Shown: in pieces, positions 1,544 to 53,815 of the stretch
How positions within the stretch are numbered: position 1 is the stretch's first letter
Layout: every line of letters begins with the position of its first letter
Source: Thermoanaerobaculia bacterium
GTDB taxonomy: Bacteria; Acidobacteriota; Thermoanaerobaculia; Multivoradales; Multivoraceae
Assembly (NCBI GenBank): GCA_022826745.1
Contig: JAJDUI010000014.1
Location: forward strand, 8,520-72,519
Direction of reading: 5' to 3'
DNA length: 64,000 bases
The notes under the pieces: generated by a model
What the model saw: the letters and a program-made list of their open reading frames with translations, nothing else
What the model was told of the DNA's origin: nothing
Database searches by the model: none
Program-made: the position numbers and the translations under genes

Positions 1544-2332
1544 ATGGAAGAAGCAATCAAGGCAGAGAACCTGACCCGGTCGTACGGGGGCAACGTCGTC
1601 GTCGACGGCGTCGATCTGGACGTCCGGGAGGGGCAGATTCTGGGTTTCGTCGGCCCCAACGGGGCCGGAAAGACGACGACCTGGTCGATGCTGACCGGGG
1701 TCTTGCGGCCGACGAAGGGCACGGTGCGGCTGCTCGGCAAGCCGATGGACATCGACGACACCGAGCTCAAGCAGCAACTCGGCATCGTGCCCGACCACAG
1801 CGTGATGTTCGAGAGCCTGACCGGCGAGGAACTGCTGCTGTCGTATGCCCGCATCTACGGCCTCGGCCGTGAGGACGCCGGCCAGCGGACCGACGAGGCG
1901 CTCGCCGTGTTCGACCTCGAGGACGCCGCCAGGCGCCCGATCACGACCTACTCCCACGGCATGAGGAAGAAGATCCGCCTTGCCGCGGCGACCCTTCACG
2001 CACCGCGAATCCTGTTCCTCGACGAGCCGTTCGAGGGAATGGACGCCCTGAGCGCCCGCACCGTCATGTCGATCCTGCAGCAGATGGCCGAGCAGGGAGC
2101 AGCCATCTTCCTCACTTCCCACATGCTCGACTACGTCGAGCGCGTGTCGACCCACATCGCCGTCATCAGGGACGGCAAGGTCCTTCTTTCGTGCTCACGC
2201 GAGGAGTTCCGCGAACTGCCCGCCGCCGAAGGGGAAGACGGCGCCGGGCGACTCGAGAACCTCATTCTCAGTATCTCCAGGCGTGAGAGGTTCTCCCGCC
2301 TCTCCTGGATCGGCAACAGGAGCACGACATGA
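1544..2332 (+). CDS. ABC transporter ATP-binding protein
   Basis: Walker A GPNGAGKTT, signature YSHGMRKK, Walker B LFLDEP, H-loop TSH. Confidence 0.95.
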   Translation: MEEAIKAENLTRSYGGNVVVDGVDLDVREGQILGFVGPNGAGKTTTWSMLTGVLRPTKGTVRLLGKPMDIDDTELKQQLGIVPDHSVMFESLTGEELLLSYARIYGLGREDAGQRTDEALAVFDLEDAARRPITTYSHGMRKKIRLAAATLHAPRILFLDEPFEGMDALSARTVMSILQQMAEQGAAIFLTSHMLDYVERVSTHIAVIRDGKVLLSCSREEFRELPAAEGEDGAGRLENLILSISRRERFSRLSWIGNRSTT

Positions 2333-3108
2333 CCGAGTACCAAGGCAGCATCAACGGCGAACGCAACGCCGAAACCGGCGGCAACCACTCACAGGGCCGG
2401 AACGCCTGGCTCACGGCGCTGCTCGGGCTCTTCGCGTCGCCGCGGCAGAGCTTCGAGATCATCCGGAACCGCAACCCATGGCTCGCAACGCTGCTCCTGG
2501 TCCTGGCTGGAAACGCCGCCCTGGCCCTGGCCTCGGCGCCGCTGGGCCTCCAGGCCATGCGTGCCCAACTGACGGAGCGGATGCCGGGCAGCCCGGACCA
2601 GGTCGACGCCATGATGGCGCAGTTCGAACAGGCAGCCGCGGCAGGGCGCTGGGTGGCGATGGTCACCGGTCCCCTCTCCGTGGCCGTCGGACTCGCGATT
2701 CAGACCGTGCTCGTGTGGCTCCTGGCGGTCGCCCTCCAGGGACGGCTCCGATTCGTCCAGTCCCTCGCCCTGATGATCCACCTGGCCGTGATCACTCATC
2801 TCCAGAGCTGGGCCAACTTCCTTCTCATTCACCTCCGCGGCACCGACGCGATCCGATCGCAAATGGACCTCCGGGCGCCGATGGGACTCGACCTGCTGCT
2901 GGCCGGCGACAACGCGACGCTCAACGCCGTCTACGCGAGCATCAACCCGTTCACGATCTGGTTTCTCGCGCTGCTCGCGCTGGGCGCCGCCGCGGTGTTC
3001 GAGGTTCCGCAGCGCAAGGCATGGCTGCTGGCCGCCATCTACTGGGCAGCGACGACGGCCTTCACCGCCGTGGCGGCCGGTCTCTTTGCCCGGCTCACGC
3101 CGAGCTGA
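2329..3108 (+). CDS. Yip1-family membrane protein
   Basis: N-terminal LFASPRQSFE..R..PW pattern, several TM helices, C-terminal SINPFTIW; ATGA overlap with the ATPase stop. Confidence 0.8.
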   Translation: MTEYQGSINGERNAETGGNHSQGRNAWLTALLGLFASPRQSFEIIRNRNPWLATLLLVLAGNAALALASAPLGLQAMRAQLTERMPGSPDQVDAMMAQFEQAAAAGRWVAMVTGPLSVAVGLAIQTVLVWLLAVALQGRLRFVQSLALMIHLAVITHLQSWANFLLIHLRGTDAIRSQMDLRAPMGLDLLLAGDNATLNAVYASINPFTIWFLALLALGAAAVFEVPQRKAWLLAAIYWAATTAFTAVAAGLFARLTPS

Positions 3109-3153: not shown

Positions 3154-3852
3154 ATGGGCGAAGAACCGGAGGCGAGCCGCCACCTCTGGTTCAAGGCCCT
3201 GATCTGGATCTTCGCCGCTCCGCGGAAGAGCTTCCTCGTCATCCGCGAGCACCACCCGTGGGTCGCCGGCCTGGCCGTGGGCAGCTTCCTGATCGTCCTG
3301 GCCTTTCTGCTGAGTGCACGGTGGTTCGGCGATGCCATGGGCAGCATCGGCGAGCCCCTCGAGATTCCCTACGGGATGGTCTCGTTCGTCTTGGCGGCCG
3401 TCCCGCTCGCGCTCCTGTTCGAGGCCGTCGTGCTTCGGCTGCTGGCGGCGGCCATGAAGGGTCGGGCGCGGTTCGAGCAGTGCGTGTCGCTGGCGCTGCA
3501 TGTCGGCCTCGTCGGCGCCGTCGGAGTGGTCGTCCGCTCGCTGTTGAGAACCACCCAGGTCGACAGCCTCCTCGAGCTGCAGCGGAGCGTCCTCCACAGG
3601 AAACCGGATTCCGGCCTCGACGTGATCGGGCAGGTAGCCGAAATGGCGCCCGGCACGATTCTCGACCTGATGATCCACTCCTTCGTCTTCATATGGTCCT
3701 TCCTCCTGCTCGGCCTGGGCGCCGCCGCGGTGTTCCGGCTGTCCCTACCAGCCGGGTTCGCCATCGCCGCGATCAACTGGGTGGCAGGAAAAGTGCTGGA
3801 GATCGGTCTGGCGGGCCTGATGATCGCGGCGGTGACGGCATCCTTCCCCTGA
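3154..3852 (+). CDS. Yip1-family membrane protein (paralog)
   Basis: IFAAPRKSFLVIREHHPW pattern and TM layout similar to the upstream gene. Confidence 0.75.
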   Translation: MGEEPEASRHLWFKALIWIFAAPRKSFLVIREHHPWVAGLAVGSFLIVLAFLLSARWFGDAMGSIGEPLEIPYGMVSFVLAAVPLALLFEAVVLRLLAAAMKGRARFEQCVSLALHVGLVGAVGVVVRSLLRTTQVDSLLELQRSVLHRKPDSGLDVIGQVAEMAPGTILDLMIHSFVFIWSFLLLGLGAAAVFRLSLPAGFAIAAINWVAGKVLEIGLAGLMIAAVTASFP

Positions 3853-3924
3853 CCGCGACGCGGCCAGGCGGCAGTTTCGCCTCAGCGTTCGTCTCCGCCT
3901 CCGCCCCACAGGTGGCCGGGTCGT

Positions 3925-3953
3925 TTGACGGACAATCGACCGCACGGTAGCTT
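3925..3953 (+). promoter_or_regulatory. Sigma70-type promoter for the candidate ncRNA
   Basis: TTGACG (3925-3930), 17-nt spacer, TAGCTT (3948-3953); predicted +1 at about G3960. Confidence 0.7.
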
Positions 3954-3959
3954 CTCGCC

Positions 3960-4094
3960 GTTGGTTGTCGTCGCGCCGTGGGCCTGCGAGCCGGGTCTCC
4001 TGCCGAATACAACAGTCGACACCAGGCGCCGGGTCGCTCCCGGCGCTCGGCGAATAGGCAGGGCGTTTCGTGCCCACTGTGCATGACGACCAAC
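3960..4094 (+). ncRNA. Candidate rod-shaped small RNA (possibly a compact 6S-like RNA)
   Basis: 5' end 3960-3983 pairs with 3' end 4072-4094 using three G-U wobbles that work only on the + strand; inner CCTGCC/GGCAGG helix; A-rich bubble GAATACAACA/GAATA; apical hairpin; predicted TSS equals the first paired base. Confidence 0.6.
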
Positions 4095-4139
4095 AAGGCC
4101 CGGCGCCAACCCTCGCTGCCTGCCCCAACCGCGGCATGC

Positions 4140-4148
4140 TGGTATAAC
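4140..4148 (+). promoter_or_regulatory. Extended -10 promoter (TGgTATAAC)
   Basis: TG-G-TATAAC about 36 nt upstream of ATG 4185, which has an AGGGGAG SD. Confidence 0.5.
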
Positions 4149-4184
4149 GATGGCACCAACCGGCTATCGATGAGGGGAGAAACC

Positions 4185-5285
4185 ATGCCGAGCAAAGTGA
4201 CTCTCGTTGCCGCCGCTGCCGCCGCCATTGTCTTCCTCGCGGTACCCGCCGCGCCTGCCGGCGACGACGACGCGATCCCGCGCACGGCCTCCGGCCGTCC
4301 CGACCTGACCGGCGACTACGACATCTCCACGCTGACCCCGCTCCAGCGACCTCAGGAATTCGGCGACAACCTGTACCTGACGCGCGAGCAGGCGGAAGAG
4401 ATCGTCGAACGGGAGCGCCAGCGCGTAGCGGCACGCGCCGCCGTCCGCCAGATCGACGAACCGCCCCCGCCCGGCGGCGCGCCGCCCATCGGCCTCGGCG
4501 ACGAGTTCCGGGAGACGAGCGGCGCCGGCAACGTCGGCGGCTACAACAACTTCTGGACCGATCGCGGCAGCGACGTGTTCTCCATAGACGGCAGGTTCCG
4601 GACCTCGATCATCGTCGACCCGCCGAACGGTCGAATGCCGCAACTGACCGCCGAGACGCTGCAGCGGATGTCCGAGCGGCGCGGTCGCCGGCGCGGCAAC
4701 GACGGCACCGCCTGGTGGCTCGAGGTCGAGGGCCCCGGTCCGTACGACGGCCCGGAGAACCTGGGCGTGCCCGAACGTTGCCTGATCGGTTTCGGCTCCA
4801 CCGGCGGACCGCCGATGCTGCCCGTGCTCTACAACAACGCCAAGCGGATCGTGCAGACCGAAGACCACTTGATGATCCTGGTCGAGATGGTGCACGACGC
4901 GCGCATCGTCCGCATCGGCGGCGAGCACATTCCGGAGGACGAACGCCGCTGGCTCGGCGACTCGATCGGCTGGTGGGAGGGCGACACGCTCGTGGTCGAG
5001 ACGACGAACTTCATCGACCGCCCTGCGCTCTTCCTGGCCTCACGGAACCTCAAGGTGACCGAACGCTTCACCCGGGTCAACGCGGACGACCTGCTCTACG
5101 CGTTCACGGTGGAGGATCCGACCGTTTGGAGCGCGCCCTGGAGCGGCGAGTACCTGTGGCCCGGTACGCCCGCCAAGGTCTACGAGTACGCCTGCCACGA
5201 GGGGAACTACGCCATGGGCAACATCCTCAGGGGCGCGCGGCTGCTCGAGGACGAGACGCGCAGCGCGGCCAGCGGCGGCCAGTAG
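4185..5285 (+). CDS. Secreted hypothetical protein of the family usually found beside DUF6152
   Basis: Signal peptide MPSKVTLVAAAAAAIVFLAVPA; motifs PRTASGRPDLTG, GDSIGWWEGDTLVVETTNF, YEYACHEGN; SD supports 4185 rather than 3978. Confidence 0.85.
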   Translation: MPSKVTLVAAAAAAIVFLAVPAAPAGDDDAIPRTASGRPDLTGDYDISTLTPLQRPQEFGDNLYLTREQAEEIVERERQRVAARAAVRQIDEPPPPGGAPPIGLGDEFRETSGAGNVGGYNNFWTDRGSDVFSIDGRFRTSIIVDPPNGRMPQLTAETLQRMSERRGRRRGNDGTAWWLEVEGPGPYDGPENLGVPERCLIGFGSTGGPPMLPVLYNNAKRIVQTEDHLMILVEMVHDARIVRIGGEHIPEDERRWLGDSIGWWEGDTLVVETTNFIDRPALFLASRNLKVTERFTRVNADDLLYAFTVEDPTVWSAPWSGEYLWPGTPAKVYEYACHEGNYAMGNILRGARLLEDETRSAASGGQ

Positions 5286-5305: not shown

Positions 5306-5731
5306 CTACTGCTCAGTCGGATCCCGGCCGTCGCGCGGCGCGCCCGTGCCGGAGGAACCCATGAACAGCTTGCGGCCGTCCGGGAAGGTCAGGTCGCGGC
5401 CGTTCGCCTTGTTCGAGCCGTCCTTCGCCTGGTAGCCGTCGACGACGATCTCGGTCCCCGGCAGGAGCGATCTCTTCGTGAAGCCGCGCCTGGCGAGCGT
5501 GTTCGGCGTACCGCCTTCGACCATCCAGACGGTCGACGAGCCATCGTCGTTCATCACCTCCAGGTGAATCCAGGCGTGGGGATTGATCCACTCCATCTTC
5601 GTCACCTTGCCGCGAAGCTGGAGCGGCCTGTCGGCGTCGAACTCGGCCGAAAAGGCGTGATGAGCGGCGAGCGGAATGGCGAGCACCAGGGCGAGGCCTG
5701 CTGCCAGTAGGACGATTCGCTGGAACTTCAT
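5306..5731 (-). CDS. DUF6152-family secreted protein
   Basis: Signal peptide then AHHAFSAEFD ... MEWINPH ... W.VEGG.PN.L.RRG; SD AGGAGAGGAG. Confidence 0.85.
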   Translation of the reverse strand: MKFQRIVLLAAGLALVLAIPLAAHHAFSAEFDADRPLQLRGKVTKMEWINPHAWIHLEVMNDDGSSTVWMVEGGTPNTLARRGFTKRSLLPGTEIVVDGYQAKDGSNKANGRDLTFPDGRKLFMGSSGTGAPRDGRDPTEQ

Positions 5732-5760
5732 CGCGGTTCTCCTCTCCTTGGCGGTATCCG

Positions 5761-6585
5761 TCAGGGACCCGAGCCGGCGCCCTTGCGCAGGTGGCCGTAC
5801 ATCAGCTCCTCGGCGAACTCGACGCACTTGAACTCGAGCAACTGCATGTTCGGGTCGACTCTGCGGTAGAGCGGCAGGCTGATCGTCCAGGGCTGGCTGT
5901 AGACGTTCTCGTCGGTGATCGTCGCCTCGTACTGGAGGTGATACGGGCTCATCGCGGTCCAGCGCTCCTCGACGTGGATAGCGTCCGTGTGGTGGTTGCC
6001 GCTCGAGTCGAGCCAGGTGTCGGGCACCTGGCTCGTCACGTCGACGACCAGCGTCTCACCTTCCCAGCGACCGATCGAGTGTCCCATCCAGGTATCGAAC
6101 GGCGCCTCGAAGCCCTCGCGGTCCATGTAGATCACGCGGCTGGCGCTGGCGAACTCGTAGGCGATCAGCACGTGATCGGGCGTCTGAACGATCTGGAACG
6201 GAAACGGCATGTAGTTGGCGCGCGGGATGCCCGGCATGTAGCACTTCACCGCCGGATCGAGCGCCAGCCAGTTCTCGCGGTTCTGATCGCGCTTTTCCAG
6301 GGCCTCCGGCAGGTACGGGATCCTGCCCCCTTCAACGATGCCGAGACCGCCGGGTATCGCGCCCAGGGCGGCCATCTCGACCACCGGGCCGTGGCGTGCG
6401 GCGTGCGGTTCGATGTCCCAGTGGGCCGCGCCCAGCGCCTGCCAGATCCCGTTGAGATCCGGCCTGTCGTCGTGGGTGCGCGGCGCCCTGTAATCGCTGT
6501 CCTGCGCCGCCGCGGGCGCCGCCGCGAGCACGAACGCCGCAAGCAGCGTCAACACCGCCCGTTCCGTGAGACTCCGCTTCATCAC
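5761..6585 (-). CDS. Secreted hypothetical protein, paralog of 4185-5285
   Basis: Signal peptide; PRT..RPDLNGIWQ, CYMPGIPR, GHSIGRWEGETLVVD, LEFKCVE; SD GGAGGAGG. Confidence 0.85.
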   Translation of the reverse strand: MMKRSLTERAVLTLLAAFVLAAAPAAAQDSDYRAPRTHDDRPDLNGIWQALGAAHWDIEPHAARHGPVVEMAALGAIPGGLGIVEGGRIPYLPEALEKRDQNRENWLALDPAVKCYMPGIPRANYMPFPFQIVQTPDHVLIAYEFASASRVIYMDREGFEAPFDTWMGHSIGRWEGETLVVDVTSQVPDTWLDSSGNHHTDAIHVEERWTAMSPYHLQYEATITDENVYSQPWTISLPLYRRVDPNMQLLEFKCVEFAEELMYGHLRKGAGSGP

Positions 6586-15577: not shown

Positions 15578-15770
15578 CCGACGCCCTCCAGCCCCTCCGG
15601 GCCGGAGGGGAGGGTCCACGGGGGCTGTCGGCAAGCGACGGCCGACACCCGCTCGTGAACCGACGCCCGACCGGAGCGCAGCCGACCGAAGCGAGCGCCC
15701 ACCCTACCTCCACCGAGAAAGCGCGAGCGGCCCCGGGGACCCTCCCCTCCGGACCGGAGAAGGCGGGTGC
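15578..15770. repeat. Structured interspersed element, copy A
   Basis: Imperfect ~33-bp inverted arms (~15591-15624 / 15731-15764) around core AGCGCAGCCGACCGAAGCGAGCGC (15675-15698), shared with copies B and C. Confidence 0.85.
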
Positions 15771-25711: not shown

Positions 25712-25900
25712 CGACGCCGTCCAGCCCGGGCTGGCGCCGGATGGCCGTCCCAGCGGGCTGGAGGCAAGCGACTGCCCATCCGTTCCCGCAACCACGGCCA
25801 ACACGCAGCGCAGCCGACCGAAGCGAGCGCGGCCGCCCCCCTCACCCAGAGAGCGCGAGCGTCCGCAGGGACGGCCATCCGGCGTCAGCCCGGGCGGGTA
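25711..25900. repeat. Structured interspersed element, copy B
   Basis: 28-bp arms 25724-25751 / 25868-25895 (one G-T pair); core 25807-25830; 12-bp direct repeat ACCGACGCCGTC at 25710-25721 and 25906-25917. Confidence 0.85.
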
Positions 25901-53615: not shown

Positions 53616-53815
53616 CCGACGACGTCCAGCCTGCGGCGGGGTCCGGAGGGGAGGGTCCCAGCGGGCTAGAGGCCAGCGACTGCCGAGAGCGCACGGCCAA
53701 CCACAGCCGCCCGGAGCGCAGCCGACCGCAGCGAGCGCCAGGTCCCTCCATCCACCACGAGGGCGCAAGCGTCCGTCTGGGACCCTCCCCTCCGGACCCC
53801 GCCGCAGGCGGGTGC
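53616..53815. repeat. Structured interspersed element, copy C
   Basis: Perfect 32-bp arms 53629-53660 / 53778-53809; core 53715-53738. Confidence 0.85.

Follow-up and report, generated by a model that had tools for sequence, protein, structure and literature searches.

A candidate promoter and structured leader RNA cassette confined to one genus of sponge-associated Acidobacteriota

The locus and its predicted fold

The window analysed here is a stretch of 64,000 nucleotides (nt) from a Thermoanaerobaculia bacterium of the family Multivoraceae (assembly GCA_022826745.1, contig JAJDUI010000014.1, positions 8,520 to 72,519 of the forward strand; genome G000 in our comparisons). Near its beginning, on the + strand, lies a gene for a protein of 366 amino acids (aa) with a signal-peptide-like N-terminus and no Pfam family (4185–5285), preceded by a Shine-Dalgarno (SD) region, GAGGGGAG, at 4172–4179. 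Upstream of this is a compact element which an earlier note on this DNA had flagged, at 3925–4094, as an unannotated, promoter-driven RNA of about 135 nt. The conserved unit exceeds the flagged span, running from about 3923 to 4110 with a 3′ tail included, and comparison of its copies indicates that it is one member of a genus-restricted family of cassettes in which a promoter is followed directly by a structured 5′ leader.

The two promoter boxes lie where the earlier note had placed them, TTGACG (–35) at 3925–3930 and, after a 17-nt spacer, TAGCTT (–10) at 3948–3953, with G3960, the seventh base past the –10 box, as the predicted +1. In the minimum free energy fold this base opens the 5′ arm of a long closing stem, P1 (3960–3993), which pairs with a 3′ arm at 4063–4094 containing many G-U pairs that are readable on the + strand only. 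A conserved internal-loop strand, GCCGGGTC (3990–3997; G[CU]CGGGUC in the family), is complementary to the 3′ tail and is followed by the 5′ strand of P2, CCTGCC (3999–4004), which pairs with GGCAGG at 4057–4062 (98.6% of cells paired across the family). Within P2 lie the conserved, A-rich 5′ side of an internal loop, GAATACAACA (4005–4014), which begins 46 nt from G3960; the 5′ strand of P3, GTCG (4015–4018); the apical hairpin P4 (4025–4047), with a variable stem closed by GGG/CCC and a T[CA]GCT loop; the 3′ strand of P3, CGGC (4048–4051); and the conserved 3′ side of the internal loop, GAATA (4052–4056). Both strands of P3 and the 3′ strand of P2 are assigned from the fold together with pair counts. 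The closing stem, the CCTGCC/GGCAGG helix, the A-rich bubble and the apical hairpin described earlier were thus all recovered in place. Beyond P1 stands the conserved 3′ tail, GGCCCGGCGCCAAC (4097–4110), and within the insert of about 50 nt that separates the RNA from the gene there is a second promoter-like box of the extended –10 type, GCTGGTATAAC, at 4138–4148 (TGGTATAAC at 4140–4148).

Folded as RNA, the + strand of 3960–4094 reaches –75.9 kcal/mol (z –4.68; shuffle mean –55.85, standard deviation 4.28), a value equalled by none of 200 shuffles. The fold of the – strand is weaker (–65.8 kcal/mol, z –3.24), which fits the earlier argument that the G-U pairs mark + as the RNA strand.

No model among the 4227 of Rfam 15 matches the element at its gathering score, the only such match in the window being a cobalamin riboswitch (RF00174, 55762–55929, – strand, 78.9 bits), and at E ≤ 10 the region 3800–4250 yielded only a chance match of 16.1 bits to a Streptococcus small RNA (sRNA) model (gathering score 37.2). 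A comparison of eleven further copy-bearing loci with Rfam gave nothing except a tRNA. At the level of abstracts, searches of the literature on the genus, the family, the order, Thermoanaerobaculia sponge metatranscriptomes and Acidobacteria riboswitch candidates turned up nothing on the motif. The element belongs to no catalogued RNA family and, within that literature, is undescribed, in keeping with its having been called unannotated.

Copies, covariation and promoter

The genome of the window contains two full-length copies on the same strand, 4.3 kb apart. The second lies upstream, just outside the window (G000:C8:8180–8357), and is 69–70% identical to the flagged copy; other matches in this genome are chance similarities of at most 30 nt. 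The two copies have promoter boxes, 5′ arm and core in common and are separated by two single-base insertions or deletions. A conserved small open reading frame (ORF) within the element was considered and rejected on account of these two differences, the apparent common peptide needing different start frames. By BLAST the element was found in 23 of 24 other genomes of the genus, which comprises uncultured, sponge-associated Acidobacteriota. We refer to orthologues of the window copy as class A, to orthologues of the upstream copy as class B and to copies at other loci as class C. The class B copy always lies 3.5–5 kb from the class A copy, and both are syntenic orthologues across the genus.

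Two covariance models were built, R1 from alignment A3 and R2 from alignment A4. At E ≤ 0.001, R2 gave 144 matches in 41 of the 42 genus genomes counting that of the window (40 of 41 others), with 1–10 per genome, and zero matches in 15 genomes from 12 further genera of the same family; across an evenly drawn sample of the order, 18 of 19 genus genomes contained a match and none of 131 genomes outside the genus did, both large searches having been run under Infernal's stricter filters, with which weak relatives could be missed. The sole genus member without an R2 match (G010) gave a site match of 14.7 bits (E 0.035) with the filters off. It carries no more than a homologue, 36% identical, of the class B gene, and has a plain hairpin where the motif would be; at this site (L235, 1323–1423) a plain long hairpin and a small hairpin stand upstream of the gene. 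Tandem pairs were observed at three loci (L220, 801–1163; L225, 801–1182; L227, 801–1192) and also at G007:C370:452–812. These form a sub-type in which P1 begins GUGAAUCGC, the first member is without P5 (the 3′ hairpin described below) and runs into the promoter of the second, and a small ORF starting MPQSRVALLG lies behind the second.

When folded singly, 18 representatives gave the same architecture. P1 is a long, variable closing stem of about 25 bp with bulges, followed in order by the core strand G[CU]CGGGUC, P2 (CCUGCC/GGCAGG), the internal loop with GAAUACAACA opposite GAAUA, P3 (GCCG/CGGC), a 5′ bulge of about 6 nt, and P4, a variable stem closed by GGG/CCC and capped by the loop U[AC]GCU, which is absent in two copies (L228 and L233). 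The conserved tail, GGCCCGRCNCCA, follows P1. In classes B (7 of 8 positions) and C it contributes the 5′ arm and the loop to an additional hairpin, P5, one position of which reads A-U, U-A, G-C, G-U or U-G; class A has no P5 3′ arm and does not form this hairpin. The most conserved parts of the family are the internal-loop strands, G[CU]CGGGUC, the apical loop and the tail, and the stems vary freely. Class B retains the same architecture with a different, equally fixed internal loop, in which AGACCUAGCC stands opposite AAGUC (a AGACCUAGCC-like sequence thus taking the place of GAATACAACA), and its CGGACC strand is paired within the rod; this pattern looks like altered specificity.

Alignment A4 (62 matches, 59 distinct rows) spans all three classes and includes orthologues and paralogues. 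In it 34 of 50 pairs change on both sides, none of 500 column shuffles reaches the observed value on any of five measures, and 81.7% of cells are paired compared to 38–50% when the partners are slid by 1–3 columns; helices 1–3 are 88–94% paired, with 22 of their 23 pairs changing on both sides. Alignment A5 was drawn from dispersed loci, with a few class A- or B-type copies (58 matches, 52 distinct rows), and here 44 of 50 pairs change on both sides and 89.0% of cells are paired compared to 36–42% when slid. All nine P4 pairs in A5 change on both sides, as do six of the eight in P5, which is 84.6% paired. G-U and U-G pairs are frequent (e.g. 27 UA and 22 UG at one P1 pair in A4), which supports + as the RNA strand. 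The covariation among genus copies argues firmly for a real structured + strand RNA and bears out the structural conservation in related genomes on which the earlier proposal had depended.

The promoter is conserved along with the fold. A TAnnnT hexamer begins 8–13 nt before the start of the model in 51 of 56 copies, where the background of the same loci predicts 0.011 per copy, and TG is present at the extended –10 position in 28 of 56, often as GTGCTAnnnT. Classes A and B have a –35 box in common, GTTTGACG, found in most rows of both, with GTTGACG in two class A rows. Given the fixed distance of the –10 box across copies, the predicted start therefore lies at the foot of P1, and would coincide with the first P1 bases throughout the family.

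Small shares of the sampled words of the stretch occur in six RNA runs, four of which were compared in detail. Contigs covering the element come from three metatranscriptome runs in two studies: one in X15 spans 3922–4111 at depth 52.9 with 5 differences, one in X16 spans 3903–4114 within a 420-nt contig, and one in X17 spans 3991–4153. No contig of X15, X16 or X18 covered the upstream gene (3300–3867), and in all four runs the downstream gene was covered; uncovered stretches carry no weight in such data, and contigs are unable to show transcript ends. This coverage fits transcription of the element.

Genes behind the RNA

Among class C loci, 58 matches less 8 duplicates and 9 without an SD-preceded start codon within about 35 nt left 41 distinct copies; of the nine set aside, three are the upstream partners in tandem pairs, five are weak or atypical matches and one is a class B-type copy. 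In 36 of the 41 an SD-preceded start codon follows 6–15 nt after the end of the model, the starts having been picked by hand from script candidates and the printed sequence. The order in classes B and C is P5, often a short SD-pairing stretch (GCCUC-like), the SD and a start codon on the same strand.

Class A is more varied. In 8 of 24 orthologues the tail stands directly before GAGGAGAG...ATG or CAGGAGAG...ATG, with no GCTGGTATAAC box; in 13, including the window copy, a variable insert containing a conserved GCTGGTATAAC intervenes, in some cases with G+C-rich hairpins; and 3 differ again. The 12 other loci with GCTGGTATAAC are L022, L023, L025, L026, L030, L032, L036 and L039–L043. The earlier suggestion that the element is probably not a leader, since the downstream gene has a promoter of its own, retains some force for the window copy with its insert, but does not hold for the family, in which 36 of 41 dispersed copies and 8 of 24 class A orthologues abut an SD and start codon.

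The RNA is present at only 8 of the 78 loci with homologues of the 366-aa protein, these being the orthologous ones, and it therefore marks a position and not a protein family. The 366-aa protein also has a paralogue on the other strand, with an RPDL[TN]G motif in common, next to a DUF6152 protein (window positions 5761–6585 and 5306–5827, both – strand). Its family, for which there is no Pfam model, includes at least 577 tblastn relatives in Acidobacteriota and marine Gammaproteobacteria metagenome-assembled genomes.

The class B genes encode a membrane protein of about 540 aa, an ABC ATPase and two Yip1-domain proteins. In the window the latter are adjacent on the + strand (2329–3108 and 3154–3852) and have an 80%-identical 45-nt stretch in common, and have the appearance of a tandem duplication. 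The class B leader is preceded, just upstream of the window (L002, 2–1368), by a C-terminal fragment of a C39 peptidase and by two ORFs, each of about 105 aa and glycine-rich at the C-terminus, a bacteriocin-like setting.

A Pfam scan of 36 class C proteins found a reprolysin-like metallopeptidase in 5 and no family in 25, with single occurrences of M48 plus PDZ, CARDB, CsgG, TonB_C, an rve integrase and a sub-threshold GerE. Three loci in one genome (L079, L081 and L082 in G023) hold a near-identical leader and PDZ-M48 peptidase gene, two of them identical, with an ISL3-family transposase upstream of each (shortened in L079); these look like a duplicated module carried with the insertion sequence. 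At six loci (L050, L071, L073, and also L194, L212 and L085) the leader is followed by a small ORF of 42–86 aa, and in the first three this ORF and a RepB-primase gene on the opposite strand face each other, pointing to a plasmid-like setting or that of an integrative and conjugative element. Separately, the window contains three copies of another element of about 165–190 nt (15595–15759, 25721–25898 and 53626–53812), with 36-nt inverted-repeat arms and a common inner sequence.

Possible function and relation to known RNAs

We propose, with moderate confidence, that the RNA is a cis-acting leader, and that binding of a ligand or protein to its conserved unpaired core sets the translation of the downstream gene or the stability of its mRNA. 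Transcription would start at the first base of P1, the RNA would act in cis on the gene behind it, and the conserved unpaired core would form a docking site for a small ligand or protein, the occupancy of which would alter the initiation of translation or the stability of the mRNA for a group of proteins that are mostly exported, secreted zinc metallopeptidases among them. At the sequence level the family displays two generic features of riboswitches, namely a structured domain with covarying helices and conserved loop nucleotides, and a position downstream of the –10 box and ahead of the SD and start codon (36 of 41 copies), within the 5′ untranslated region (UTR) of the predicted transcript. 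That it is a true riboswitch is nonetheless doubtful, if clearly possible. Only tentatively, then, might it be a new class sensing e.g. a second messenger, a metal or a host-derived metabolite and switching on a secretome of metallopeptidases and exported proteins of no known family; the same conjecture, at the same low level of confidence as a whole, would extend to the ABC transporter operon beside the bacteriocin-like genes and would make class B a specificity variant. Such a riboswitch would be unusual in that promoter, aptamer and ribosome-binding site are inherited and duplicated as a whole cassette.

A second pairing was found between the tail, GGCCCGRC, and the core strand G[CU]CGGGUC, to which it is complementary over 8 bp. 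All eight positions pair in 22–23 of 23 class A rows; in class C every position is paired in 12 or more of 14 rows, one position reading C-G, U-G or U-A; in class B only six of the eight positions pair. The tail bases involved are the same as those used by P5. This pairing may represent an alternative state, e.g. one in which the lower P1 helix is open, and could explain why the class A tail is invariant in the absence of P5. A simple switch, in which capture of the tail by the core frees the SD, received no support from the thermodynamic model. Three other candidates were also rejected: kissing between the P5 loop and the core strand (AUCC-GGGU, GUCC-GGAC), which looked covarying between classes A/C and B, failed as dispersed copies vary the loop and not the core strand; pairing of the class A tail with the 5′ arm of P4 failed as P4 varies and the tail does not; and attC-like sites or k-turns at the stem ends and loops do not seem to fit in orientation or sequence.

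Several observations weigh against a signal-responsive leader, or against parts of it. By geometric reasoning the 2-nt linker would make the tail/core pairing incompatible with an intact P1 of about 25 bp, a helix which in any case greatly exceeds the switching helices of known riboswitches in length and stability. In the thermodynamic model the mean unpaired probability of the SD was 0.33 with the tail free and 0.31 with it blocked, rising in 3, falling in 7 and remaining unchanged in 24 of 34 copies. Restriction to one genus is unusual for a riboswitch. A consensus scan of 3500–4600 called no sigma-70-like promoter, the second box at 4138–4148 included; the upstream promoter was missed because TAGCTT matches only three of the six positions of TATAAT, and the case for it therefore rests on the comparison of copies. 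Two of the RNA-library contigs extend 38–57 nt upstream of the predicted +1 and so give no support to a start at 3960, and the contigs may reflect read-through from upstream or carry-over of DNA. The fitting of A4 and A5 to the model biases both alignments toward structure, but the helices remain convincing in view of the slid controls and the variety of pair types. The exported character of the proteins behind the RNA is also loosely drawn: a strongly hydrophobic N-terminus (mean Kyte-Doolittle hydrophobicity ≥ 2.0 over 12 residues near the N-terminus) was found in 24 of 41 downstream proteins compared to 9 of 32 crude gene calls in the window, and these 24 look exported or membrane-anchored by a measure which is crude, depends on hand-picked starts and counts non-independent paralogues. 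Finally, the window copy itself has lost the 3′ arm of P5 and is separated from its gene by an insert that holds a second promoter-like box, and its coupling to the 366-aa gene may have been loosened, partly or wholly.

The strongest of the alternatives is that the stem is a constitutive mRNA stabiliser or a processing hairpin for RNase III, responding to no signal, and that the cassette is a portable 5′ UTR for high expression. A stem at +1 would shield the 5′ end of the mRNA from 5′-end-dependent decay, and P1 begins at the predicted +1 in nearly all copies; its length of about 25 bp is sufficient for RNase III and would suit that enzyme. The lack of any alternative-pairing switch in the thermodynamic model, and the copying of the cassette before many unrelated genes, are likewise what such a role would predict. 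However, a stabiliser needs no conserved unpaired nucleotides, and it is the loops that are conserved here while the stems vary, which is the strongest point on the other side; class B moreover keeps the architecture with a different, conserved internal loop. We regard a purely constitutive role as unlikely.

It is rather improbable that the class A copy of the window is instead a free sRNA of about 150 nt acting in trans, with the gene driven by the promoter at 4140–4148. The absence of the P5 3′ arm in class A, the insert with GCTGGTATAAC between tail and SD in 13 of 24 orthologues (some with G+C-rich hairpins) and the single RNA-library contig spanning just 3922–4111 are in its favour. However, the ends of that contig coincide with the ends of between-strain conservation, which is by itself a cause of assembly breaks; the consensus scan found no terminator-like site on the + strand of 3500–4600; no conserved single-stranded seed region was identified; and 8 of 24 orthologues together with nearly all paralogues are plainly leaders.

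Some features of the family recall a mobile repeat of the miniature inverted-repeat transposable element or repetitive extragenic palindromic type, with P1 as a terminal inverted repeat: there are up to ten copies per genome, copies are identical within each of two genomes (G066 and G023), some adjoin ISL3, IS1595 or rve transposase genes or RepB primase, and tandem pairs occur. Such an origin is nevertheless very improbable. In 36 of 41 distinct copies the element keeps one orientation and a fixed spacing relative to the start codon, and in 51 of 56 the promoter stands at a fixed distance, the P1 sequences differ by compensatory changes and are not near-identical, the A and B copies are syntenic orthologues, and the identical copies include the downstream gene, which makes them gene duplications. 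The earlier note had named many dispersed copies of a mobile repeat as grounds against its proposal; the element is not a randomly scattered repeat of this kind.

Least probable of all, to the point of being negligible, is the compact 6S-like RNA binding RNA polymerase that the earlier note had put forward on the strength of the rod shape and the internal bubble some 46 nt from the 5′ end, since the 6S model RF00013 has no match in 3800–4250 at E ≤ 10 nor in the window at gathering score, the genome already has a canonical 6S RNA elsewhere (G000:C18:108720–108906, 70.6 bits against a cut-off of 46.4), the element occurs in 1–10 copies per genome, most of them adjoining an SD and start codon, and its loop of 10 nt opposite 5 nt is small and asymmetric and is no mimic of an open promoter. 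The observation that opened this analysis was confirmed in full, and its interpretation was borne out in part only.

Should the leader hypothesis hold, one RNA element would tie together otherwise unconnected genes of an uncultured symbiont lineage, mostly for uncharacterised exported proteins, giving these a common regulatory label and providing a handle toward the signal they answer. The approximately 140 natural variants, with their rich covariation, are enough for tests to be made without culturing the organism, and the family appears to be an unusually clear case of promoter, structured leader and ribosome-binding site moving as one duplicable cassette. If the RNA is only a stabilising hairpin, it would extend the catalogue of structured 5′ UTRs only modestly.

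Among known systems, 6S RNA (RF00013) is similar in its rod-like fold, internal loop and own promoter. However, 6S RNA is usually a single housekeeping copy per genome with no start codon abutting it, and its large central bubble mimics an open promoter, binds RNA polymerase and templates short product RNAs (pRNAs); the element differs from it by model, copy number and context. The ompA 5′ UTR, the rnc and pnp leaders and the T7 early sites are 5′-terminal stabiliser hairpins or RNase III-processed leaders, and resemble the element in having a stem at the mRNA 5′ end or a long double strand broken by internal loops, but are not paralogous multi-copy families with conserved loops. The cyclic-di-GMP riboswitches GEMM-I and GEMM-II occur in many copies per genome, in tandems and upstream of genes whose products are secreted or surface-exposed, one being a zinc metalloprotease of Clostridioides difficile. 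The element is like them in all three respects, a likeness of regulon type only, although it matches neither of their Rfam models.

The nearest parallel is with orphan riboswitch candidates and other cis-regulatory 5′ leader motifs found by comparative genomics, as in the Breaker-lab surveys (PMC8632094, PMC11109978, PMC7266159). The element differs from these in that its P1, of about 25 bp, begins with the predicted +1, in that no expression platform is recognisable in it by the thermodynamic model, in its confinement to one genus with no Rfam 15 match, and in having the promoter as part of the conserved, duplicated unit. It resembles them in its conserved unpaired nucleotides framed by covarying helices, in its position between promoter and SD or start codon, in the presence of several copies per genome before different genes, and in the existence of a sister class with an altered internal loop. 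On this comparison the element appears to behave like the orphan riboswitch candidates and leader motifs.

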